In this document: piece after piece, positions 5,027 through 40,347 of the stretch | Position numbering within the stretch: position 1 is the stretch's first letter | How the letters are laid out: each line of letters starts with the position of its first letter | From: Nitrospirota bacterium | GTDB taxonomy: Bacteria; Nitrospirota; Thermodesulfovibrionia; Thermodesulfovibrionales; Dissulfurispiraceae | Length of the DNA: 64,000 nt | Direction: 5' to 3' | NCBI GenBank assembly: GCA_963790025.1 | Contig: CAWBMP010000004.1 | Location: forward strand, 1,280,001 to 1,344,000 | Position numbers and translations under genes: made by a program | The notes under the pieces: generated by a model | Told to the model about the DNA's origin: nothing | What the model saw: the letters and a program-made list of their open reading frames with translations, nothing else | Database searches by the model: none

Positions 5027-6475
5027 CTATTTATCATATATTGAAGCAGGATATTCGCGAAAAAGCGAATAAGCAGCCCTCCTTATGATATTTTGGACAG
5101 GGGAATAAGACAGCAATCTCCTGGCAAAGCGGGATTTTACAATTAATTTTCTCATAATACTGAGGACTATATAGTGGACGCCTCCCCAACGATAGCAAGG
5201 CAATATTATATTCCCAAAGGAATCAGTTATTGAGCCTTTCTTAAACCTGGAGGGGATATTCTCCCAGGAGAAATCTTTATATTTTTGCCGGAACCAACGC
5301 TCCCAGTGGGTGCCGGGGAAAATGAACGTCTTAAGGCTGATTTGTATTTCCGGAGAGATATTTTTTGTGCGGGCCAGAAAAAGCAAAGAGTCTACAGCCC
5401 ACCCGAATTTTTCCTCCGGCATCCCGGCTATCATTGTTCCCCGGCTCTGAATCCCAAACTCCGGGGGCAAGGTCAGGGCCGCGTAATTGTTCCGGACCGT
5501 GGAATTTTTCCTGATTACCTTGAGCATCTCATCATTGCCCGATTCTATCCCGAAAGACAGGGTTGTGCACCCCGATTCCCGTAATATCGCAAGGTAATCC
5601 TTATCGATAATATTTGTTCTGGACCAGCAACCCCAGTTAATTTTTACCTTTCTTCCTATTATTTCCTCGCAGACGGAAATGGCGTGTTTTCTGTTTGCCG
5701 TAAAAGTATCATCGAAAAAAACAATGTTTTCAATAAATGGAAACTGCCGTATGATATCCTCGATTTCATCGACAATATTTCTTGCAGAACGAAATCTGAC
5801 CTTTCTCCAATATCGGGTAGTAGAACAAAACTTGCACGTATTTCCGCAGCCCCTGCTGGTTATCATAGTGGCCGTGTTTCCGGAAATTGTCCCGAATCCT
5901 ATGTCATAGTCTTTCATTGGGAACAAGTCACGGGCAGGGAATGATATAAGATCAAGGTCTTCAATCGCGTCGCGCAGCTTATTGACGATCACTCTGCCGG
6001 TTTTTTCCCGAAAGGCTATTCCCTTTACAGCGTCAGGGTCTCTTTCGCATGAAACGGCGTCCAAATAATCAACAACGGTTGTCTCTCCCTCACCGAGCAC
6101 AAGAACATCAACCGACGGATTTGTGCTCAAGTAACTTTCGGGAAGGAAGAAAGGGTGGGGGCCGCCTACCACTATCCTTGCATCTGGAAACCGCTTTTTC
6201 AGCTCTTCCGCCCAAAAAGCGAGGTTGATTCTATTGGTAGTAGTGCATGTCATTCCTATAATGCCGGGATTATAATCCGATAGTTCATTTATTAAGGACT
6301 GGTCGGCCTTCAGATAGTATTTCGACAGGCAATTCTTGCTTACGCTAAGATCGAATGCCTTCACCTCATTTCCTGCGTTTCGGATCGCCGACCCGATATA
6401 TGCCAGTCCGAGCGGTACTGTATATCCCTTTCCGGATATCCCGCTGTCAGGAATATTTATCAGTGCTGTTTTCAA
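5027..6475 (-). CDS. B12-binding radical SAM protein (class B methyltransferase-like)
   Basis: PLGLAYI, VVGGPHP, GEGE cobalamin-binding domain; SRGCGNTCKFC CxxxCxxC; FDDTF, GIESG. Confidence 0.9.
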   Translation of the reverse strand: MKTALINIPDSGISGKGYTVPLGLAYIGSAIRNAGNEVKAFDLSVSKNCLSKYYLKADQSLINELSDYNPGIIGMTCTTTNRINLAFWAEELKKRFPDARIVVGGPHPFFLPESYLSTNPSVDVLVLGEGETTVVDYLDAVSCERDPDAVKGIAFREKTGRVIVNKLRDAIEDLDLISFPARDLFPMKDYDIGFGTISGNTATMITSRGCGNTCKFCSTTRYWRKVRFRSARNIVDEIEDIIRQFPFIENIVFFDDTFTANRKHAISVCEEIIGRKVKINWGCWSRTNIIDKDYLAILRESGCTTLSFGIESGNDEMLKVIRKNSTVRNNYAALTLPPEFGIQSRGTMIAGMPEEKFGWAVDSLLFLARTKNISPEIQISLKTFIFPGTHWERWFRQKYKDFSWENIPSRFKKGSITDSFGNIILPCYRWGGVHYIVLSIMRKLIVKSRFARRLLSYSPVQNIIRRAAYSLFREYPASIYDK

Positions 6476-6503
6476 GATAAGTACCTTTTTCCAATAAAGA
6501 CAA

Positions 6504-7613
6504 TCAACTGCCTGATCGAGACATATTTCGATTTTGGGAATTGCCCTTCAGGATTAACTCATATTGCTCGATCAGGGCACGGGCTATATCGGCATATGAG
6601 TAGGTCGAGGTTATATGATTATAGCCATCTTCGGCAATTTTGTTTCGCTCAGCATCATTTCTTAAATAGTAAGAAAGTTTTTCTTCAAAATCATCGGGTC
6701 CGTTATAAACAATAACATGTTTCCCTGGGACTACTATCGTATCAATGTCCACAGAGTCATCCGTAAGAAGAGCTGCTTTGCAGGCAGGGACCTCTAAAAT
6801 CCTCATATTTACGCCGCTCCGCTTTTCAAACCCCCACTGCGTGATATTAAGCACTATTCTGCTTTCGTTATAGAGTTTTATAAGTTCCGCTCCTCTTAGC
6901 TGCTCGCCCTTTACAACCCGGCGCACGGCGCCGTTAGAGAGATTTTTCTTCATCCATTTAGGCCCGAAAACGGCCGCGTTGCCGGAAACCTTCACAGCCC
7001 TTTCGACAAACGCCTGGCGTGATGGAGTCCATTTTCCCACAAAACTCCAATCGTAGCGCTTGGCGCAGTCCAGCGGATAATAGAATTCGGTATCGACGGA
7101 ATGGCGCATTAAGCTTATATTGTTAAAACCCCTTTTTCTACCCTCTTCCACGCAGGATGGACTGAGAAAGAAATAGTGATCAAAGCGGCCGGCCTCTCTG
7201 AAGGGTTCTTCCATGCGCTCTTCTCCCTCCAGCCACCAGCCGAAGGCGACAGATTTTTTTCTGATCTCTTTCAAAACATCCTCTGTAAAACGCGGCACCC
7301 CAGCCATAAAAAAAAGATCAGGGGATATCTCGTTTACTTTCTCCATTAATTTGGAGCTGCGGTAATTAATGGCCGAAAGAGGGTGGTTGTCAAAAAAAGT
7401 CCGGCTCTTTGGCAGAACGCGCAAATTGTGGGCCTGTTTATTAATAAAATGTATCACATGACGATCGAACCAGTTATTAGTGTTCGAATTAAACCAATAA
7501 ACCTCCACACCTGAATTCTGAAATGCCCTTTTCAGGGAGTCTATAAAATGAAGGTTAAGGCTAAAATTATACCCGCAAGCCACTAAAATTCTTTTAAGCG
7601 CAACATCACTCAT
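6504..7613 (-). CDS. Glycosyltransferase, CgeB-like (Glyco_trans_1_2)
   Basis: SFVG, LNI...NMRILEVPAC...LLTD, IAEDGY motifs. Confidence 0.8.
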   Translation of the reverse strand: MSDVALKRILVACGYNFSLNLHFIDSLKRAFQNSGVEVYWFNSNTNNWFDRHVIHFINKQAHNLRVLPKSRTFFDNHPLSAINYRSSKLMEKVNEISPDLFFMAGVPRFTEDVLKEIRKKSVAFGWWLEGEERMEEPFREAGRFDHYFFLSPSCVEEGRKRGFNNISLMRHSVDTEFYYPLDCAKRYDWSFVGKWTPSRQAFVERAVKVSGNAAVFGPKWMKKNLSNGAVRRVVKGEQLRGAELIKLYNESRIVLNITQWGFEKRSGVNMRILEVPACKAALLTDDSVDIDTIVVPGKHVIVYNGPDDFEEKLSYYLRNDAERNKIAEDGYNHITSTYSYADIARALIEQYELILKGNSQNRNMSRSGS

Positions 7614-7645
7614 ATTATTATTTTGACTTCAATCCCCCATACCTG

Positions 7646-8752
7646 TCAAACGGACTCATTTCTTAAAAAGGAATACAGTTCTTCACCCAAAACTTTATAG
7701 TCCCTTTTTTCTTTTATGATACCCCTGCCTTTATTTCCCATTTCAATGAGCCTTTCCTTCGGCGTTTTCAGGATTGTGCGCACCGCTGTCTGAATATCTT
7801 CCCTTGTAAAGTTACAAAAAAAAGCGCTTTCTTTATCGAAAAGCGATATATATTCGGGCAAATAATTGATCAAAGCCGGAAGACCGACGCTGTAATATTC
7901 CAGCGTCTTTGTCGGAGAGGAAACCCGGTAAAGGCTGTTTTCAGGAATAAGGCCGATGCCAATATCATACTGCTGCATCTTTTTCAGGAGTTCTCCTCGT
8001 GGAACAGCAGGGTGGATTGTAATTTTCGGGTCCCCGCAATTTCGAATGCGTTTTGTCACTGCATTATCGCTCCGCGTAAATATATCTAATGCAAAATCCT
8101 CCTCCATTCCGGCAAAGGCACCTACTATCAGTTCCGTTTCGCGCAGATGGTCTACTGTTCCTGTATAGATAAATTTCCTGACCTTGTTGACTTCAAATGT
8201 ATAAGAAGGCGCGGCATCAAAAGAGACACCCATCGGGAGGGACAGATGTTTGATGTCCAGGTCAGAATAAAATTGGTCCTTAAATTCTTGTGACATGGTG
8301 ATAAGGAAATCGCATTTGCCCATGAGTTTCTTTTCAAAATAGGTCCTGAGTTTATATTCTATGGCCTTCCTGACTACTGCGCGCCCTTCTTTTTGTGCTT
8401 CAAACAGCCTTCTGTACGAGTGAGGAAAGGAGTGCCAGAAACCGACACGATAATTAAAGTTTCTTTTGTTCCTGAGCACATCTTTCAGCACGGGAAAAAG
8501 GTTTCTGACAATCACAGTGTCTGTTTGGTCCAACGCGATCAAACCGTTTAGCACTTTGGTCGGAGCATTCCTCTTATAGCGATAAGGGATATATATTTTG
8601 TTACCTTCGCGCCTGCAGGAAGCCGTCCGTGTAAAAAAAACTATGGAAACCTCGCACAACTCCTGAAGGCGCTTTCCAAAGATACCTTCAATGGAAGAGT
8701 GGTCGGAACCCTCAAATTGATCTGTTATGCATAAAATCTTCATAACACTCAT
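7646..8752 (-). CDS. Glycosyltransferase (GT-B fold)
   Basis: FIYTGT, SSPTKTLEYYSVGLP. Confidence 0.8.
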   Translation of the reverse strand: MSVMKILCITDQFEGSDHSSIEGIFGKRLQELCEVSIVFFTRTASCRREGNKIYIPYRYKRNAPTKVLNGLIALDQTDTVIVRNLFPVLKDVLRNKRNFNYRVGFWHSFPHSYRRLFEAQKEGRAVVRKAIEYKLRTYFEKKLMGKCDFLITMSQEFKDQFYSDLDIKHLSLPMGVSFDAAPSYTFEVNKVRKFIYTGTVDHLRETELIVGAFAGMEEDFALDIFTRSDNAVTKRIRNCGDPKITIHPAVPRGELLKKMQQYDIGIGLIPENSLYRVSSPTKTLEYYSVGLPALINYLPEYISLFDKESAFFCNFTREDIQTAVRTILKTPKERLIEMGNKGRGIIKEKRDYKVLGEELYSFLRNESV

Positions 8753-11589: not shown

Positions 11590-12716
11590 CTGGGATCCCA
11601 AAAACGAAGTTTTTTCGGGGCAGAGCGGCCTCTCCCGTTCAACAGAGACACGTAGAGCGCATACATGCTGTCGCACATCTTTTCAGTGCTGAACTGCTGT
11701 TCAACCATCTTCCTTCCTTCCCTTCCCATGGCTGCCATTCCCTCTTTATCGCTCAACATTTTCAGCATTGCGTCTGCAAGGGCTTTGGCATTGCCGGGGT
11801 CAACGAGATAGCCGTTTATCCCGTGTTTAATGACCTCCCCGACGCCGCCGACATCAGTCCCGATAACCGGCTTCCGCATTGCCATTGCTTCGACAAAAAC
11901 CCCTCCATGCGCCTCCTGAAGAGTCGGAAGCACGAAAATATCAAATGAGTTGACAATAACCGGAATGTCCTGCCGCAAGCCGAGCATGAATACCTTGCCG
12001 GACAAACCGGCCCTCTCTATTGCATTGGAGATATTCCTGGTTTGCGGCCCGTCACCGGCAAACACAAAGACGGCATCCGGTATTTTTTCGAGCACCCTGG
12101 GTATTGCCTCGAGCAGGATTTTGTGCCCCTTCTTATTCCGCAAAATCGCTACAGTGCCGATAAGAGGCGCCTCCGGCCCGAGCCCAAGCTCCTGCCTGAG
12201 AGTCGCAGGAGTATTGTCAGGGTCAAATCTGCTCAAATCTATGCCTGTGTGAATGGTGACTATTCTTTCATTGCCGACGCCTGCGCTTATCAAATAGCGC
12301 TTAACATAATCACTGGTGGTAACTACCTTGTGAGACAATAATGAATAAGTGAATCGGGACGTTATAGGCAGCGCAATGTGGCGTGTCCTGACAATTACAG
12401 GCTTCCTTCCAGACATCCTTCCGGCTATGCCCGCAAGAAAGCTGTCTCTGCCGCTGTGGGAATTGATCACATCGATCCGCTCGCTGCTGATCACTTTCAT
12501 TATGAAGGCTATCGCAGGGAGGTCATAATGTTTTTTCATTCTGCAGATCCTGACCTCTATCCCTTCCGCTGCCGCCATCTTTCCCAGTGTACTGCCGGGT
12601 TGACAGAGTATAAACACCCTTGCGCCGATCTTTTTCAGACCGATGGACTCTTTAAGCGTCCTGTTTTCCTGACCCCCCCAGCCTTTCGACGATTCCGTAT
12701 GGAGTACAGAGATCAT
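11586..12716 (-). CDS. Glycosyltransferase family 4
   Basis: WGGQENR, KGH, EAHGGVFVEAMAM. Confidence 0.9.
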   Translation of the reverse strand: MISVLHTESSKGWGGQENRTLKESIGLKKIGARVFILCQPGSTLGKMAAAEGIEVRICRMKKHYDLPAIAFIMKVISSERIDVINSHSGRDSFLAGIAGRMSGRKPVIVRTRHIALPITSRFTYSLLSHKVVTTSDYVKRYLISAGVGNERIVTIHTGIDLSRFDPDNTPATLRQELGLGPEAPLIGTVAILRNKKGHKILLEAIPRVLEKIPDAVFVFAGDGPQTRNISNAIERAGLSGKVFMLGLRQDIPVIVNSFDIFVLPTLQEAHGGVFVEAMAMRKPVIGTDVGGVGEVIKHGINGYLVDPGNAKALADAMLKMLSDKEGMAAMGREGRKMVEQQFSTEKMCDSMYALYVSLLNGRGRSAPKKLRFWDPR

Positions 12717-13438
12717 TTTTCCGCTACTATCTTAAGATGTGCCCTATTGTAGAAACATGACGAAAATCTTAAGTTAAATCCGGTTTTTTTCAATAGTAAC
12801 TTGAATGTTTCAGGCGAAAAATACCATAAGTGACCCGGAGGTCCGAAATATTTCCATTTTGCACCAGCCAGCCTTGCTTTTATATGAGATACACAAGGGA
12901 CCACTATAACAGTTACTCCACCGGGTTTTAAAATCCGTTTTATTTCCTTCATAGTGCTGATAGGGTCATGTAAATGTTCCAAAACATGCAAAGCAACAAC
13001 TACATCGAAACTTGCATCTTCAAATCTATGGTCCTCAAGAGTTCCCTGTGAAACATTTAATCCTGATGCTTTTGCATAATCCAGATGTCTGGAAGATAAA
13101 TCTATACCCATGGCATCCCACTTTTTGCTTCTTAAAGCCGCCAACATCAAATCGCCCTGTGAGCAGCCAATTTCCAGCAAACGGCCGGGCTTTGAAAATT
13201 TTTCGATCCATTTGAGCAACAACCTGTATCGCAAACGCCTTCCCATCCCGCCTGCGGGAACAAAGGGTTCACCTTCATTTACATAAGCGTTTTTCTTTGA
13301 ATATTTAGTAATTATTTCATCAAGAGGCGGCAGAGGGACAGTATATACAAAGCCGCATTCATTACATTTAACAATACTATAGATGCCTTTTTGACATACA
13401 AATTCATATCCATCAGAATTGCATAAAATACATTTCAT
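12713..13438 (-). CDS. Class I SAM-dependent methyltransferase with N-terminal CxxC...CxxC
   Basis: CILC...CNEC; LLEIGCSQG; HVLEH; LKPGG. Confidence 0.9.
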   Translation of the reverse strand: MKCILCNSDGYEFVCQKGIYSIVKCNECGFVYTVPLPPLDEIITKYSKKNAYVNEGEPFVPAGGMGRRLRYRLLLKWIEKFSKPGRLLEIGCSQGDLMLAALRSKKWDAMGIDLSSRHLDYAKASGLNVSQGTLEDHRFEDASFDVVVALHVLEHLHDPISTMKEIKRILKPGGVTVIVVPCVSHIKARLAGAKWKYFGPPGHLWYFSPETFKLLLKKTGFNLRFSSCFYNRAHLKIVAEK

Positions 13439-29126: not shown

Positions 29127-29147
29127 GGGGTCAGGTCTATAATGTTT
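29127..29147 (+). repeat. REP-like inverted repeat, left copy flanking RAYT
   Basis: GGGGTCAGGTCTATAATGTTT, exact reverse complement of 30039-30059; partial extra copy AACGGGGTCAG at 29109. Confidence 0.85.
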
Positions 29148-30003
29148 ACCTTTTTGCATGACCTCGAACAACCCGGCTTATATATGTAAAATGCAAATTG
29201 AGATGATTTGCGATTGCCCGCTGAGTATATCCAAATTCGTAGACAGCAGTAATTATTTTGCTGTCCCTCTGACTTTTATCCATTAATATGTTTTTGCTGA
29301 ATATGCTATCCAACCCGGGTCTGTTGACATACCGTTGCGTTTTGGATATTTCGGCAATATTCTTATGTTTATTGAGATGATGATTCAGGCTATCAACGAA
29401 TTCTTCTTTTCCGAGGACTACCTGGCCCTTAACAGCATTCCAAATACTTTCTTGTTCGATGCCTGATTTCACAAACTCACTGTATTTTCTTTCTGCCTCA
29501 CTCCTTTCCTCGCTGAATTGCCCTAGTATCCAGTCAGTGGTAAGACACGGATGAGGCGTTTTCTTTCCTGCGGTTTCCCCGCAGCTGGACCATTTCCAAT
29601 CTTCAGGCTGTTCAACTATGTGCGCACGTACCGGATTCAGCACAACATATCGGCACACTTCAAGAAGATGACTGTCTTTCTGGATCACAATAGCCTTATA
29701 TCTACCTTGCAACAGATGACCTGATCGGTTGCGCTTTTTGTTGTAAGCCTGGCTGTAGACACTGTTTAATTGCCTCATCCCTATGGACAGATTTCCATCC
29801 GGCGTTTCAATCATCAAATGATAATGGTTATCCATCAGACAGTAGGCATGGCATAGCCAATTGTACCGTCTATTGATATCGACAAGAATCCCAAGGAATG
29901 TTTCACGGTCAGCGTCATCCCTGAAAATTGACTTCTTCTCGTTTCCACGAGAAGTAACATGATATACAGCGCCAGGATATTGTATGCGCAACGGTCGAGC
30001 CAT
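29146..30003 (-). CDS. REP-associated tyrosine transposase (RAYT, Y1 HUH) with C-terminal HTH
   Basis: MARPLRI..PGAVYHVTSRGN, CLMDNHYHL (HUH), RYVVLNPVRA, WKWSS; start ATG 30003. Confidence 0.9.
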   Translation of the reverse strand: MARPLRIQYPGAVYHVTSRGNEKKSIFRDDADRETFLGILVDINRRYNWLCHAYCLMDNHYHLMIETPDGNLSIGMRQLNSVYSQAYNKKRNRSGHLLQGRYKAIVIQKDSHLLEVCRYVVLNPVRAHIVEQPEDWKWSSCGETAGKKTPHPCLTTDWILGQFSEERSEAERKYSEFVKSGIEQESIWNAVKGQVVLGKEEFVDSLNHHLNKHKNIAEISKTQRYVNRPGLDSIFSKNILMDKSQRDSKIITAVYEFGYTQRAIANHLNLHFTYISRVVRGHAKR

Positions 30004-30038
30004 AACAGCCAATTTATCAGATTCATCATGAACATGTA

Positions 30039-30059
30039 AAACATTATAGACCTGACCCC
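30039..30059 (-). repeat. REP-like inverted repeat, right copy flanking RAYT
   Basis: AAACATTATAGACCTGACCCC. Confidence 0.85.
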
Positions 30060-30181
30060 ATTTCCACATTTCCACATACCAATATTCTTGCCTTTTCTTT
30101 CAATTTATTGGTATGTGTCCCTATTTTTTTAGGGCTAACGAGTTTTTAATAAAACTTACCCACGACAAACAAACTGCAAAA

Positions 30182-31165
30182 CTAGGCAAATAGTAGTACG
30201 AATTGTTCAAACAGCTCCCTATGAAAGTGATTGATCATTTCCTCTCTCATGACCGTTAGTGCCTCAAAAGGAGTGAGTTTCGGTTTGTAGGATCGCTCAG
30301 CAGTCAATGCGTCATACACATCCGCAATACAGCAGAGTCTGCCATATACATGGATTTGATCGCCTTTGAGTCTGCGGGGGTACCCATTGCCGTCCTCCCT
30401 CTCGTGGTGCTGCATCTCGATAATCTTACACTCCTCCGTTAATTGGCCTGCCTCGGAAAGGATCTTGTAGCCCTGATACGGATGTGTTCTCATTTTCTGT
30501 ATCTCTTCTTTTGTAAGTCTTCCTGGCTTGTTGATTATCCCTGGATCAACACGGACTTTGCCGATATCGTGCAGGAAAAAGCCCGCTCCCAGTTCATGCA
30601 TATCATGAGCATCGGAATCTTTAAACAGTACCTTTGAAAGCATAATCGATAAAACTCCGACGTTTACCGAATGGGTGTACGTATAAAAATCATGAGATGT
30701 GATCCTCAATAAATAGTTCGCCGTAGCATCGTCCGAAATGAGAAGGTCCACGATTTCAGCAATTTCCTCTTTTGCTATTCGAATGTTTTCGGCCTTGGGG
30801 TCCGACAGCAGCTTGCCCATAAGTTCAACGGTCGACTTATATACCACTCTTGCTTTTTTCTCCGGAGCAAGTGTCCTGCTGTGAATGGCGTCTCTTAATT
30901 CATCCGAAACCAGTTTCTCAGTCTCCCACTTTTGAGGAGGCGCCAAATCCTCGTCTCCATGGCTCATTGATCCAAAATCTTCAAACGGCATTCCCTTGGA
31001 GCTATTTATATTCACCTCATCAAACCCGCCATCGATGATTTTTGCTATTTCAGAATGGTGTTTAATTGTAAATTCGTTTTTCAGGAAGGGATGATCAAGC
31101 CACGAAACAGGCAAGACGACGTGCATACCGACCTTCAACTCTTTTACCTTTATCCTCTGGATCAT
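30182..31165 (-). CDS. HD-GYP c-di-GMP phosphodiesterase with DUF3391-like N-terminus
   Basis: YTYTHSVNV, LHDIGK, HHEREDGNGYP, IADVYDALT. Confidence 0.9.
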   Translation of the reverse strand: MIQRIKVKELKVGMHVVLPVSWLDHPFLKNEFTIKHHSEIAKIIDGGFDEVNINSSKGMPFEDFGSMSHGDEDLAPPQKWETEKLVSDELRDAIHSRTLAPEKKARVVYKSTVELMGKLLSDPKAENIRIAKEEIAEIVDLLISDDATANYLLRITSHDFYTYTHSVNVGVLSIMLSKVLFKDSDAHDMHELGAGFFLHDIGKVRVDPGIINKPGRLTKEEIQKMRTHPYQGYKILSEAGQLTEECKIIEMQHHEREDGNGYPRRLKGDQIHVYGRLCCIADVYDALTAERSYKPKLTPFEALTVMREEMINHFHRELFEQFVLLFA

Positions 31166-31263
31166 ACAGCTATTTTAAACTATACCAGCATAAATTAAAA
31201 AAAGTTCTGATTTGTCCCGATTCGTTTTTGTCTGAGAGAAAAAGTAGGGTCTACCATAGGATT

Positions 31264-31460
31264 TATGCAGATGACTATGGCAGCTTTATTCATGTAAGAT
31301 ATGCTTAACGGGGGTGTGGCTTGTGGGGTCAGTGGCCTGTTCATTCAGGCTCACTTGAGTCTGAAATGCCGCCTCCGTCATCTGCATCATCCTCAAAAGG
31401 GTCGACCGGGATGGTGCCAAATGTGGCTCTGTAAGTAGACGAGACCTGAGGATGATAATC
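31264..31460 (+). ncRNA. IS110 bridge RNA (target-binding and donor-binding loops)
   Basis: Two stem/internal-loop/hairpin modules: 31308-31378 with guides GTGGGGTC and GAGTCTGA; 31386-31456 with guides CGGGATG and GTAGAC; these match the flank and end sequences. Confidence 0.8.
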
Positions 31461-31480
31461 TTGTCTGCAAAGGAGACTAC

Positions 31481-32680
31481 ATGAAAAAAGATGATCCCCT
31501 CGAACTGCGTGTAAGCGTCGATATTGGCTGCCGCAGTCACAACGTTGCAATCGGCCTATCCAGCGGTGAAGTCCTCGATGAATTCTCAATCGTGCATGAA
31601 CCTGAAGGGTTCCGGCAATTCTTCTGTCGCATCGAGAAGCAGGAGCAAAGGTTTAGTTGTCCCGTTGCCGTAGCAATGGAGGGCTTCAACGGCTACGCAC
31701 GTCCGCTGGACACGCTCGTTCGGGCCCGCAATTATCGCCTCTTCAATATCAACAATCTCAAGCTTGCTCGATTCAAGGAGATATTCCCCGGTGCCGCGAA
31801 GACCGATGCAATCGACGCAAGGAAAGGACTGGAGCTTTTTCAGCTTCGAGATCATCTGCCGATAGCCAAGGATGTGCTGCAGGAGGTACGCAAAACGCCG
31901 CGGGACAACGACATTCTAAAGCGGCTATCACGGCGCCGACGTCGTTTGGTCGATGAGCGAGTACGGGTAGTAAACAACCTACAGGCCGATCTTCACGCTG
32001 TATGTCCGGGACTTCTGGAGATTACCGGTGAGGCCGACAATATGTGGTTTCTTGGATTTCTGACCAGCACGGATGACCTTCGCACGCTTGCACGCATGCG
32101 GGAAACAACTATCCGCAAGATCCCGGGCATTGGTAAGAAATATGCCTCTGTTATTGTTGAATGGCAGAAAACAGCACAGTTTAGTCACGACGTCGAGTGG
32201 GTCGGTGAAATGATCCAGGAAGATGCAATCCGCGTGATGGAACTCCATGCCAAGATAAAATCACTTGAAGCAAAGATGGAGGGTGTTGCACACGGCTCGG
32301 ATATTGCGCAAACGCTCGCAACCATTCCAGGATTCGGTTCCATTTGTACATCTGAACTCGCCGGAGAGATTGGAACTATCGAGCGCTTTGGCAGCGAAGC
32401 AAGTCTGGCTCTGTATATTGGGATGGCGAATCTTGACAATAGTTCAGGCAAGCAAAAAGGATCAAAACCACCAACGCAGGTTAATACTCGGGCTAAGGCC
32501 GCAATGATGGTTGCCGTAGATCGGCACCGAAAACAAGTTCCGCAGTCTCAACAATATTATGAGAAAAAAAGAGCTGAAGGCAAGAAACATAACCAGGCAC
32601 TACGTGCGCTTGGTCGTCATCTTTGCCGTGTTATTTTCAAGATGCTGAAGGAGAACAGAGGGTACATCTTATCTAAATAA
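31481..32680 (+). CDS. IS110 family DEDD recombinase/transposase
   Basis: RuvC-like DEDD (SVDIG, AMEG, KTDAID), IPGFG, catalytic Ser in DNSSGK; AAGGAG SD. Confidence 0.95.
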   Translation: MKKDDPLELRVSVDIGCRSHNVAIGLSSGEVLDEFSIVHEPEGFRQFFCRIEKQEQRFSCPVAVAMEGFNGYARPLDTLVRARNYRLFNINNLKLARFKEIFPGAAKTDAIDARKGLELFQLRDHLPIAKDVLQEVRKTPRDNDILKRLSRRRRRLVDERVRVVNNLQADLHAVCPGLLEITGEADNMWFLGFLTSTDDLRTLARMRETTIRKIPGIGKKYASVIVEWQKTAQFSHDVEWVGEMIQEDAIRVMELHAKIKSLEAKMEGVAHGSDIAQTLATIPGFGSICTSELAGEIGTIERFGSEASLALYIGMANLDNSSGKQKGSKPPTQVNTRAKAAMMVAVDRHRKQVPQSQQYYEKKRAEGKKHNQALRALGRHLCRVIFKMLKENRGYILSK

Positions 32681-32831
32681 GAAAAAATATATTGAAAATT
32701 CCAGCGGGATGTTCAGGCTTGATTATATGCATTTGCGGTCCATGTGTCCATGACTATTTTCATTTATAATCCGCACCATGCTTGGAAAGTCCGATGTGTT
32801 TGTTTTTGTACGTAAAAGCGACACAAAAACC

Positions 32832-33500
32832 TTACGATTCCATCGGCAATATATTTGATTCAGAGTCAAACTTCGGGGAATTCACCGTGTTCGACACCTT
32901 ATACATTTCCATCTCTTCTGAGGGATACGGTCTTAAAATCTCCTTCAATGCCTTATAATCCTGACATGCTGGATCGAGCCATATATCCACGTCCTCTGGA
33001 GGCACGATCACCGGCATACGGTTATGAATGGACGACACTAAATCGTTAGATTCGGTTGTTATTATCGCGCAGCCGCAAATTTTATCCCCGTCAAAAGAAG
33101 ACCAATAATTATAGATTCCAGCAAAACCAAAAGGCTTTCCAGATTTTAACCTTATATAAAATGGAGTCTTCTTCTGTCTCTCCCTCTTCCACTCGTAAAA
33201 ACCATCCGCTATTACCAGGCATCTTTGCTTTTTGAATGCCTCTTTGAAACTTGGCTTTTCATCTATTGTCTCGGCTCTGGCGTTGATCATGGGGCTGCCT
33301 TCGGAAAGATCTTTTATCCATGGGGGCAAGAATCCCCATCGACACCTTATCAGTTCCCTCTTGCCTAAATTGTTTACGATGATAATTTCTTGAGAAGGGG
33401 ATACATTATAGCTCGCGGAAAGGTCGAAAGAAGGAGACTCGATATGGAATATCTCGACGACAGACGTTATCGGAGCAATCCTGACAAAGCGGCCACACAT
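32832..33500 (-). CDS. SOS response-associated peptidase (SRAP/YedK/HMCES)
   Basis: N-terminal MCGRF, INARAET, DGFYEW, IHNRMPV. Confidence 0.95.
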   Translation of the reverse strand: MCGRFVRIAPITSVVEIFHIESPSFDLSASYNVSPSQEIIIVNNLGKRELIRCRWGFLPPWIKDLSEGSPMINARAETIDEKPSFKEAFKKQRCLVIADGFYEWKRERQKKTPFYIRLKSGKPFGFAGIYNYWSSFDGDKICGCAIITTESNDLVSSIHNRMPVIVPPEDVDIWLDPACQDYKALKEILRPYPSEEMEMYKVSNTVNSPKFDSESNILPMES

Positions 33501-33710: not shown

Positions 33711-33854
33711 ATGACAATTGCATGGGAGAAGTTGGAAAGCGAGACACGGGGCGTGGCAGACATATACCGGACTAAGGTTCCCGGCGGCTGGTTAGTGACG
33801 GCCCATGGTGGCGGGATAATGTTTGTACCTGATCCCAACCACAAATGGAAATAA
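33711..33854 (+). CDS. 47-aa small protein (not in ORF track)
   Basis: AAAGGAGA SD; MTIAWEKL...RTKVPGGWLV...IMFVPDPNHKWK; TAATG overlap with resolvase start. Confidence 0.75.
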   Translation: MTIAWEKLESETRGVADIYRTKVPGGWLVTAHGGGIMFVPDPNHKWK

Positions 33855-34558
33855 TGAGAACAGCTATTTACGCCCGAGTATCAACAGTCGATAAGGGCCA
33901 GGATCCGGAAATCCAGCTTCGGCCGCTCAGAGAATACTGCCAAGCTAGAAGCATGGAGATCGCTGGCGAGTATGTGGATCACATGACCGGCAGCAAGGAC
34001 CGGAGGCCTGAACTGGACAAATTAATGGATGCAGCTCGCAAGCGCCAGATCGATTGCATTATAGTTTGGAAGCTGGACAGGTTCGGCAGATCTCTTAAGC
34101 ATCTGGTAACTTCCATTGATGAGCTGAACAGCCTAGGCGTCGCTTTTATCAGCTATCAGGAAAACATCGATCTCTCCACGGCAGCCGGTAAACTCATGTT
34201 ACACATCATCGGCGCCATGGCCGAATTTGAGCGCGAGCTGATAGGGGAAAGAGTGAAAGCCGGAATTGTGAACAGCCGTGCGAAAGGTAAGGCGCATGGA
34301 AGGAAGTCTTTAGCGCCTGTTGATATCAGAAGGGTGATCGAGGCCTTCGAACAGGAGCCCACTGCTTCAGTTCGTAAGCTGGCTAAGCTAACTAATGTCC
34401 CTAAGTCATCAGTGGGCCGTATATTGACAGACTTTAAGGCAGGGCTCCTGGACCAGGATGGTCTGCGTTATGCAGCCCCTCTTTTGCCTGTCCCAAAAAC
34501 CACCTCAGATTCCGGGGGGCAAGATGACCAAAAGACGCCACTTTTGCCGGTCGTATGA
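33854..34558 (+). CDS. Serine recombinase (resolvase/invertase family) with C-terminal HTH
   Basis: AIYARVST, KLDRFGRS, MAEFERELI; start 33854 coupled to the upstream ORF. Confidence 0.95.
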   Translation: MRTAIYARVSTVDKGQDPEIQLRPLREYCQARSMEIAGEYVDHMTGSKDRRPELDKLMDAARKRQIDCIIVWKLDRFGRSLKHLVTSIDELNSLGVAFISYQENIDLSTAAGKLMLHIIGAMAEFERELIGERVKAGIVNSRAKGKAHGRKSLAPVDIRRVIEAFEQEPTASVRKLAKLTNVPKSSVGRILTDFKAGLLDQDGLRYAAPLLPVPKTTSDSGGQDDQKTPLLPVV

Positions 34559-39864: not shown

Positions 39865-40347
39865 GTGAAGAGAACAGAGCATTCAAAAGGCGGTCTTCTC
39901 ATCGTTGCTTTCTTTGAAGCGGCCAAAGGACTGCTTGTTTTGGTTACCGGTTTCGGTCTGCTGGCGTTTATTCATAAAGACCTTCACTTGGCTGCCATGC
40001 AGCTTGTTCGATACTTGCATATAAATCCTGCCAGACACTATCCCCAGATTTTCATCGATGCAGCCGATCACTTGGACGATGTGCACCTTCGGGTACTGGC
40101 CTTTTCAGCTTTGCTTTATTCAGCAGTTCGCATCGTCGAAGCTTTTGGTTTGTGGAAGCAGCGGCAGTGGGCCAAATGGTTTGCTCTTTTGACCGGTGGG
40201 ATATACATTCCTGTCGAACTATTCGCGATCACGCGCAGAGTGACCTGGCCTAAAGTTGCCGTATTTATCGTTAATCTAGGCATCGTGGTATATATGGGTT
40301 ATGTTTTATACCGATCAAGACAAAGCAGCAAACATGCCAAACGATAA
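39865..40347 (+). CDS. DUF2127-like membrane protein
   Basis: FEAAKG, EAFGLW...WAKW, YIPVE, VNLGIVVY. Confidence 0.75.
   Translation: MKRTEHSKGGLLIVAFFEAAKGLLVLVTGFGLLAFIHKDLHLAAMQLVRYLHINPARHYPQIFIDAADHLDDVHLRVLAFSALLYSAVRIVEAFGLWKQRQWAKWFALLTGGIYIPVELFAITRRVTWPKVAVFIVNLGIVVYMGYVLYRSRQSSKHAKR

Follow-up and report, generated by a model that had tools for sequence, protein, structure and literature searches.

Bridge recombinases, the RNA-guided enzymes of the IS110 family of insertion sequences (IS), are under development as tools for programmable DNA insertion, excision and inversion, and the bridge enzymes studied so far have a strong preference for T at the second position of the crossover core. 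The current report concerns a member of this family that lies in a 64,000-nucleotide stretch of a Nitrospirota genome (assembly GCA_963790025.1, contig CAWBMP010000004.1, positions 1,280,001 to 1,344,000), which we refer to as the window and number from its first base. The segment at 31252-32714 of the window is, with high probability, an intact and recently active IS110-group insertion sequence that moves by the bridge-RNA mechanism described for IS621. It is a new representative of an already known system, with TC in place of the usual CT crossover pair. An earlier note, drawn from the letters of the window, had proposed an IS110 element here with a bridge RNA whose guides match the element's own junctions. 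The evidence assembled below comprises the boundaries and core of the element, a conserved RNA structure, complementarity and covariation between guides and DNA, the two halves of a promoter, and the catalytic residues of the recombinase.

In the account given by Durrant 2024 (PMC11208160), the left guides of a bridge RNA pair with the DNA's bottom strand and the right guides with the top strand, the core taking part in each pairing; bridge RNAs, diverse in their structures, were predicted there for 85.7% of the IS110 elements of ISfinder. Hiraizumi 2024 (PMC11208158) describes the second core T as almost invariant among IS621 and its relatives, and the 11-nt linker and 5' stem-loop of the IS621 RNA as flexible and invisible in the cryo-EM map. 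The IS1111 group, whose seekRNA or bridge RNA is described as lying in the right end, has a recombinase of the same family as the window element and, like it, the longer type of sub-terminal inverted repeat. By the criterion given in Durrant 2024, the window element is assigned to the IS110 group and not to IS1111, because its RNA lies in a left end of 229 nt and its right end measures 34 nt.

As far as IS621 is described in these sources, the resemblance to it extends over most of the layout. Both elements have a DEDD/Ser recombinase, an RNA in a long left end, and a -35 box in the right end with its -10 box in the left end; in both RNAs a 5' stem-loop is followed by the target loop and then the donor loop, a 2-nt core is common to the guides, the left guides read the bottom strand and the right guides the top strand. 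The likeness includes a discontiguous right donor guide (RDG) with flipped-out bases (two uridines in IS621) and the use of repeats as natural targets; it may also take in the handshake bases, for which there are candidates just 3' of the bases that bind the core. The differences begin with the core, which is TC here and CT in IS621. The left target guide (LTG) has 6+2 nt and the right target guide (RTG) 2+5 nt here, against 7+2 and 2+2 in IS621, the RDG bulge has 3 nt instead of 2, and the left donor guide (LDG) here leaves donor position -1 and the second core base unpaired. A linker of 7 nt separates the two loops and pairs with the 5' end of the RNA in a helix that we call P1, whereas the 11-nt linker of IS621 is said to be flexible; the sub-terminal inverted repeat measures 6-7 bp, against 2-3 bp. 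An "extended 5' region", singled out by the earlier note, is indeed present, but it consists of the family's usual 5' stem-loop together with a 7-bp helix, in a predicted RNA about 15 nt longer than the 177-nt bridge RNA of IS621 (the RNAs being compared by description and not by sequence). The protein has 399 aa, compared with 328 in the PDB chain of IS621, and the relationship between the two is detected by profile search only.

The element thus stands outside the IS621-like CT-core clade, since it has neither a CT core with a near-invariant T nor a protein closely similar to those of IS621 and ISCro4. A literature text search for "TC core" combined with bridge-recombinase terms returned no bridge-RNA paper with that phrase, which is not proof of absence, as the orthologue tables of Durrant 2024 and Perry 2025 may list some.

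Boundaries, core and recombinase

The genome, searched for copies over 3.45 Mb in five contigs, contains six copies of the element, 99-100% identical and located at distinct places on three contigs. Comparison of their flanks with one another and with 14 empty sites defines an inserted segment of 1463 bp (31252-32714, + strand) when the core TC is assigned to the right-hand junction (32713-14); the bounds 31250-32712 are equally valid, the 2-nt core being present at both junctions. The span of 31249-32720 proposed earlier does hold the element, along with three bases of the left flank and six of the right. Six different left flanks are found at the six copies, and they diverge directly upstream of xTGGGGTC, where this is joined to the TACCAT of the element; the right flanks diverge after GGGATGT followed by TCAG(G/A)CTT, the sequence beside the core being AGGCT in five copies and AGACT in one (L004). 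Every copy has a junction that is exact to the base beside the TC core. The ends are without long terminal inverted repeats, and insertion is scarless at the short core.

In the window itself the left target reads GTAGGG (31244-49) and is followed by the core TC (31250-51); the copies share xTGGGG-TC at this place and the empty sites read TGGGGTCAGGCTTGC. The right target, in the right flank, is AGGCT (32715-19). On the donor side, the left donor CGGGATGT plus core TC occupies the right end of the element (32705-14), and positions +1 to +6 of the right donor are TACCAT (31252-57).

The crossover core is TC and not GT, because all 14 empty sites read TGGGG-TC-AGGCTTGC. The earlier note had left the choice between TC and GT open. 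A GT core predicts TGGGGTTCAGGCTT, and no genomic site of that form runs on into the repeat, whereas 14 sites of the TC form do: the genome has 46 sites with at most two mismatches to the 14-mer GGGGTCAGGCTTGC, of which 14 are exact and continue into the right-flank repeat. TC is the core in all six copies. For comparison with relatives, homologous loci were collected from GTDB genomes (69) and from metagenomes (80); among these the core is TC in 78 of 78 unique end pairs, a count for which the end-pair filter demanded TC at the right junction, and 96 of 99 unique guide/flank pairs have an LTG with TC as its last two bases.

The donor region is bracketed by a sub-terminal inverted repeat, AAATTCC ... 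GGA(A)TTT, whose right arm AAATTCC (32696-32702) has one extra T and whose left arm is GGATTT (31259-64). When positions are counted from the right end (RE) and the left end (LE), the pair RE-11:LE+8 is C:G in 63 of the 78 end pairs and RE-13:LE+10 is T:A in 65; there is some covariation, with RE-12:LE+9 being C:G in 56 and T:A in 5.

Four of the six copies are 1463 bp long and two are 1462 bp, and the 399-aa open reading frame (ORF) is intact in four. Two synonymous substitutions (L002/L003) are all that was seen among the four intact copies, and the left end is identical in these four, which are the copies that were compared base by base. In the contigs of four sequencing runs the element assembles as a separate contig of 1475 nt, as expected of multi-copy repeats.

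The recombinase gene (31481-32680, + strand) is preceded by the putative ribosome-binding site AAGGAG (31470-75), 5 nt ahead of its ATG. Its 399-aa product matches DEDD_Tnp_IS110 (PF01548, E = 7.2e-21) and Transposase_20 (PF02371, E = 1.2e-16) of Pfam and, at 164.6 bits against a cut-off of 140, the NCBIfam model NF033542, "IS110 family RNA-guided transposase", to which family it is assigned on these matches; it has an N-terminal RuvC-like DEDD domain, and the catalytic Ser is in a C-terminal Tnp domain. Residues D14, E67, D109, D112, S321 and S322 are invariant in an alignment with 17 relatives, from which locus L043 was excluded for two stop codons in its ORF. The earlier prediction of an intact IS110 RNA-guided recombinase agrees with these profile matches and with the invariant DEDD/Ser residues; judged by its sequence, the whole element is readable and intact.

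A profile built from the 17 relatives found the transposases of ISCro4 (PDB 9t56, E = 2.8e-10) and IS621 (8wt6, E = 9.2e-09), matching them mainly in the C-terminal Tnp domain; in the profile alignment the DEDD residues fall on those of IS621, and S322 falls on the Ser of the IS621 ESG motif. ISCro4, which belongs to the same bridge-recombinase class and was compared at the protein level, is the best match of the profile among solved structures, and this match is confident over the C-terminal Tnp domain (residues 252-391) only, the N-terminal domain scoring 7.9 bits. Beside ISCro4, IS622 of Perry et al. 2025 (bioRxiv 10.1101/2025.05.14.653916) is listed as a related system. Relatives of the window protein are numerous: 3486 proteins matched at E <= 0.001 among 8000 candidates scored, the best 120 of them having 71-90% identity. 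Their loci are found in genomes labelled Nitrospirota, Binatia, delta- and betaproteobacteria, and others.

The predicted bridge RNA and its guides

The structure of the RNA was derived from the window copy and tested on a MAFFT alignment of homologous left ends, of which 107 were distinct; 98 of these (202-223 nt) were kept and nine longer ones were dropped for a false left anchor. The left end of the window copy folds with a minimum free energy of -87 kcal/mol (z = -3.69), and none of 200 shuffles folds equally well. Over the 98 left ends, the 45 pairs of the structure are formed in 90.9% of 4237 cells, a figure that falls to 36.9-41.5% after a slide of the 3' partners by 1-3 columns. This control somewhat favours the structure, which came from one of the aligned sequences; the double changes are unaffected. 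Changes on both sides occur in 23 of the 45 pairs (for example GC 61 / AU 34 at column 75:143, and GC 49, AU 33 and GU 12 at column 20:151), and the covariation score is 0.186 against 0.031-0.062 for the slid pairs, the observed values being reached by 0 to 1 of 500 column shuffles. The two stem/internal-loop/hairpin modules read by the earlier note are borne out by this fold and by these compensatory changes.

The bridge RNA is predicted to be about 192 nt long (31265-31456, + strand). According to the covariation, helix P1 joins the 5' end of the RNA (31267-73) to the whole of the linker between the two modules (31379-85), with 4 of 9 pairs changing on both sides, and so encloses a 5' stem-loop, P2, together with the target-binding module; the donor-binding module follows. 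In the window copy P1 can be extended to the 11-bp stem of the earlier note, where ATGCAGATGAC (31265-75) is perfectly complementary to GTCATCTGCAT (31377-87). As a family feature the 11-bp helix was rejected and P1 is taken as 7 bp, because the outer 2+2 pairs belong to neighbouring helices in the family: 31377-78 pair with 31308-09 (98 of 98 paired, nine double changes), and 31387:31455 is paired in 97 of 98 sequences as against 36 of 98 for 31265:31387.

P2 (31274-31307) is variable, with a conserved TA (31295-96) that lies in a -10-like hexamer. Of 88 unique segments, 40 fold into one hairpin whose closing pairs lie near the segment ends (mean z = -1.28); the fold is weak in the window copy (-4.2 kcal/mol, z = -0.6), and support for the 5' stem-loop is moderate. 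The target-binding module (31308-31378) has an outer stem of 31308-15 and 31318-20 with 31368-78, in which GT 31316-17 is bulged, and an inner hairpin of AGTGGCCTG (31331-39) with CAGGCTCACT (31346-55); stem and hairpin were both re-read from the sequence as the earlier note had drawn them. These are helices 2 and 3 of the structure, in which 99.7% and 92.9% of the cells are paired and 5 and 7 pairs have double changes. In the donor-binding module (31386-31456) an outer stem (31386-95/31447-56), a middle stem (31400-03/31443-46) and an inner hairpin (31416-19/31424-27) make up helices 4-6, with 75.7%, 97.7% and 94.4% of the cells paired and 3, 3 and 1 double-change pairs. An RNAalifold consensus also predicted the target module, but it joined ATCATCC to the LDG region and not to the 3' strand of the donor outer stem. 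This donor pairing was not adopted, on account of the similarity between the LDG and that 3' strand.

The four guides are located where the earlier note had placed them, and three of them (RTG, LTG and RDG) covary with the DNA that they would read. In the target loop, the LTG GUGGGG+UC (31323-30) has the top-strand sense of left target plus core. As DNA it reads GTGGGGTC, which is exactly the left flank of copy L004; against the flank of the window copy, GTAGGGTC (31244-51), it has a single difference, where a G of the guide faces T in the bottom strand. The RTG AGUCU+GA (31358-64) is antisense to the core TC and right-target positions +1 to +5; it fits TC plus AGACT perfectly, as at L004, and an AGGCT flank gives one U:G wobble (G32717:U31360 in the window). 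The earlier note had given this guide as GAGTCTGA (31357-64), pairing with TCAGGCTT (32713-20) with two wobbles; the wobbles are there, and covariation supports positions +3 to +5. Among the copies, the non-repeat site of L004 is the best match to both target guides.

Covariation of guides and targets across homologous insertions, whose absence had been named beforehand as counting against the proposal, was found for both target guides. For the LTG, 99 unique guide/flank pairs of 117 were used; its identity with the left flank at -4/-5/-6 is 0.74/0.57/0.38, compared with 0.65/0.48/0.26 after permutation, positions -1 to -3 being conserved and so uninformative. The RTG test covered 93 unique pairs of 103 events, with 45 distinct RTGs; at +3/+4/+5, Watson-Crick pairs make up a fraction of 0.75/0.62/0.60, as against 0.51/0.46/0.37 after permutation. 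The observed total was reached by 0 of 2000 permutations in each of the two tests.

In the donor loop (LDG 31407-15), CGGGAUG (31407-13) is invariant in the 98 sequences and identical to the left donor at 32705-11, as the earlier note had read it; G31414 mismatches the donor T32712, and U31415 corresponds to the first core base. Donor position -1 is T in 66, A in 8 and G in 4 of the 78 unique ends. The RDG (31430-39) is discontiguous, with UG (31430-31), a variable 3-nt bulge (31432-34) and GUAGA (31435-39), and would pair with the core TC plus TACCA. Its G31435 and the left-end base C31254 are C:G in 87 and T:A in 11 of the 98 sequences, with no discordant case; 31255:31431 is C:G in 96 and T:G in 2, 31256:31430 is A:T in all 98, and the bulge bases vary. 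The sequence GTAGAC (31435-40), which had been read as a six-base guide, is the reverse complement of GTCTAC (31249-54), and its first five bases belong to the RDG: GTAGAC matched the integrated left junction because C31440 is a candidate handshake base that fits the last base of the left target, and it is not part of the donor guide.

Two pairs of bases are candidates for the handshake-guide arrangement of Hiraizumi 2024 by their position and complementarity. In the target loop, AA (31365-66) follows the RTG, and A31365 complements the donor -1 base T32712 and not the target -1 G; in the donor loop, CG (31440-41) follows the RDG, and C31440 complements the target -1 base G31249 and not the donor -1 T. 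A31365 fits the donor -1 T in 66 of 78 unique ends, and C31440 fits the target -1 G, for which the left-flank -1 agreement is 96% of 99; in each loop this concerns one pair only, with an invariant guide base. Taken together, the two-module RNA and the four guide assignments are supported by the covariation among relatives.

Proposed cycle and competing readings

By analogy with IS621, from which circle formation, transcription, RNA binding and the chemistry of recombination are carried over, the element would excise as a circle, and the joining of its right and left ends would create a sigma-70-type promoter. Such a promoter is reconstituted, as sequence, across the junction: the -35 box TTGAAA (32692-97, + strand) lies in the right end, the -10 box TACCAT (31252-57, + strand) in the left end, and the 17-nt spacer, which takes in 32698-32714, includes the core. 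Read from the coordinates, this promoter exists only across joined ends. Each of its boxes is conserved in 68 of 78 unique end pairs, at a constant spacing, the variants being TTGCAA (6), TTGTAA (2), TTGATA (1) and TGACAA (1) at -35 and TATCAT (8) at -10. Transcription would start about 7 nt downstream of the -10 box, near 31264-66 and just ahead of P1, and would give the 192-nt RNA ahead of the recombinase message. In the target loop, the RTG AGUCU-GA would then read the top strand of core and right target; in the donor loop, CGGGAUG would read the right end of the element and UG..GUAGA the core and the left-end TACCA. The DEDD/Ser recombinase would exchange strands at the 2-nt core TC, after which the base following each right guide (A31365, C31440) could pair with the other DNA. 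Given recombinase and RNA, a donor of joined right and left ends is expected to recombine with a TGGGGTCAGGCTTG target, the natural targets being the terminal inverted repeats (TGGGGTCAGGCTTGC...) of units of about 1 kb that carry a RAYT-like tyrosine-transposase gene (discussed below). As a separate observation, the best consensus promoter match of the region, TGGACA-17-TATAAT (11/12), lies on the minus strand of the right flank (32722-32750) and points into the right end.

The mechanism is already known, and this picture of it is refined and not changed by the present element. In the well-populated clade to which the element belongs, the TC core is fixed, the right target guide is longer and the layout of the RNA is a closed three-way one; this clade would represent naturally occurring bridge recombinases with a TC core, orthogonal to those with CT. 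It might serve as a natural test of core recognition, and the guide rules that can be read from its natural covariation make it a defined candidate for widening the addressable sequence space.

Several observations weigh against this interpretation of the locus. No + strand promoter came up in the integrated left end when it was scanned with a promoter consensus, and the sequencing runs listed for the stretch are 11 DNA runs, as contigs, with no RNA run among them. Contigs of four DNA runs, which are poorly suited to show either, contained no circle junction and no joint bridging the empty site. In two of the six copies (L005 and L006, 1462 bp) a 1-bp deletion stops the ORF after 243 codons; this is either a common true frameshift or a repeat consensus error. 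The LDG makes no pair with donor -1 and the second core base, although Durrant 2024 puts the core in all four pairings, and the LTG, the LDG and both handshake bases are nearly invariant, so that covariation is weak or absent there. Beyond +5, the RTG fits its cognate flank no better than a permuted one (0.16/0.24/0.26 against 0.23/0.23/0.25 at +6/+7/+8), for which reason the eighth base of the guide in the earlier note (G31357, +6) is unsupported. Rfam had no matching family for 30500-33500 of the window at E <= 10. A single-sequence search of the PDB (phmmer) with the recombinase gave nothing at E <= 0.001, which places the protein at a distance from the studied enzymes.

The alternatives that fit best concern the 5' part of the RNA, where P2 has a promoter-like geometry (31271-31300). 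A shorter RNA might start at about 31307-09 from an internal sigma-70-type promoter with a -35 box xTGACx (31271-76) and the -10-like hexamer TAAGAT (31295-300, of the form TAnnnN), P1 and P2 then being mainly promoter DNA. In 89 of the 98 left ends the two hexamers stand 17-18 nt apart, the -10-like hexamer ends 7-9 nt upstream of the target module in 97, both hexamers match at no fewer than four of six positions with a spacer of 16-19 nt in 47, and T31295 and A31296 are at least 90% conserved within an otherwise variable stretch; in addition, weak bridge-RNA expression from integrated IS621 loci is reported in Hiraizumi 2026. This signal may be an internal promoter for a shorter RNA from the integrated copy. 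On the other side, the 5' strand of P1 covaries with the linker (as in the GC 49 / AU 33 pair), which places both strands of P1 in one transcript; A2 and T6 of the -10-like hexamer occur together in only 45 of 98 sequences, the consensus scan lists no + strand site at this place in the window copy, and the fixed lengths could equally reflect a constraint on hairpin length. The shorter and the full RNA need not be mutually exclusive. It is conceivable, though unlikely, that two RNA forms arise from two promoters, the full RNA being made from the circle only, with its linker locked by P1, and a shorter RNA with a free linker being made from the integrated copy, so that the enzyme could be biased towards insertion in the circle state and towards excision in the integrated state; if true, the two conformations would constitute an RNA-level switch for the direction of bridge recombination. 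A replacement of the full RNA by the shorter one appears improbable.

It is quite improbable, furthermore, that the element is a bridge-RNA insertion sequence by design whose lineage is immobile in this genome, its copies having spread by recombination or duplication of the repeats in which they sit. The frameshifted pair of copies, the common right flank of L003 and L006 and the contigs without a circle or a polymorphic empty site would all suit such a history, but six different left flanks at distinct places on three contigs, junctions that are base-exact at TC, the identity of the left end in the four copies compared base by base, the 14 unoccupied copies of the same target that are left, and the position of L004, in a non-repeat site with the best match to both target guides, argue for movement of the element itself. 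There is very little to recommend the view that the leader is merely a cis-regulatory 5' untranslated region acting on translation or stability, with the junction matches as leftovers of protein-bound sub-terminal DNA repeats: the RNA does continue into the ribosome-binding site and ATG with no terminator-like site between them in a scan of 31150-31480, the LDG and RDG are nearly invariant as expected of protein-binding repeats, and a 6-7-bp sub-terminal inverted repeat is present, but the variable loop segments track flanking host DNA outside the element, left guides in sense and right guides in antisense orientation share the 2-nt core as in IS621, RDG position 31435 and left-end position 31254 change together in 11 of 98 sequences, and the protein comes from a family with demonstrated guide function.

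Target repeats and neighbouring genes

The empty sites for this bridge-RNA element are of two sequence types and come in inverted pairs; such a pair may, for example, enclose a 316-aa ORF, with about 985 bp between its members. This ORF matches Y1_Tnp of Pfam (an IS200-like domain; E = 6.7e-16), with a weak match to Bac_DnaA_C (helix-turn-helix-like), and scores 76.9 bits, just below the cut-off of 80, with the NCBIfam model "REP-associated tyrosine transposase" (RAYT). Because the empty sites are inverted repeats around this RAYT-like ORF, the element appears to home to the terminal repeats of RAYT-like units; such units are found at contig positions C4:1215128-1216113 (12129-13114 of locus L156), C5:55796-56781 and C5:249362-250347, among others. 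For the same reason, a sigma-54 promoter, a Tn3-type inverted repeat and an integron attC site were dropped as explanations of the target. In a tblastn search with the 316-aa protein, 20 of 155 loci matched at E <= 1e-5; the loci comprised 149 foreign ones from genomes and metagenomes (with flanks of 600-1500 nt) and the six copies of this genome, and the Y1 homologue was present in 16 of the former and four of the latter. At several of the foreign loci, no more than about 100 nt separate the right end of the element from the start of the match.

Described systems offer partial parallels for such a choice of target. ISPpu9 and ISPpu10 of Pseudomonas putida are likewise reported to insert into one conserved, multi-copy intergenic repeat (PMC12288879; bioRxiv 10.64898/2026.03.19.712850), whereas the target here is the terminal inverted repeat of a gene-carrying unit of about 985 bp, in which the repeats flank a RAYT-like gene. 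IS4321 and IS5075 of the IS1111 group, cited in Durrant 2024 (PMC11208160) as targeting the terminal repeats of Tn21-family transposons, resemble the present element in being directed to a terminal inverted repeat that belongs to another mobile unit. With the RAYT-like unit as its target, the element would add a further case, across phyla, in which a mobile element homes to the repeats at another's ends.

The RAYT-like units, with inverted repeats that start with TGGGGTCAGGCTTGC, occur in several full, truncated and miniature copies, one of about 570 bp. A 2.45-kb unit (C4:1209015-1211461; 6016-8462 of locus L156) contains a 432-aa ORF, which has only weak helix-turn-helix matches, all under the Pfam cut-offs, followed by a truncated Y1 gene of 261 aa, an arrangement suggestive of a nested insertion in the RAYT-like gene. 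Copies L003 (C4:206744-208240) and L006 (C5:250322-251808) of the element have a common right flank and different left flanks, that of L003 resembling the other repeat type, a pattern which suggests recombination between copies or repeat units. L004 is the sole copy outside the repeat family; it adjoins an inverted duplicate of its own right flank, TCAGACTTAATACTTG (C2, about 40071-40139), and its site may be a small palindromic one.

The window copy occupies a diverged, solitary version of the target repeat. Its locus (L001) owes its tblastn match to a non-adjacent 309-aa Y1_Tnp ORF (29146-30075, minus strand), with about 41% identity over 231 aa, and no ORF of the size of a Tn3 transposase was found near this copy. 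Between the Y1_Tnp ORF and the element lies an HD-GYP-type gene (HD_5 plus DUF3391; 30182-31165, minus strand); to the right of the element are a SRAP gene (32832-33500, minus strand) and a serine resolvase gene (33845-34558, + strand).

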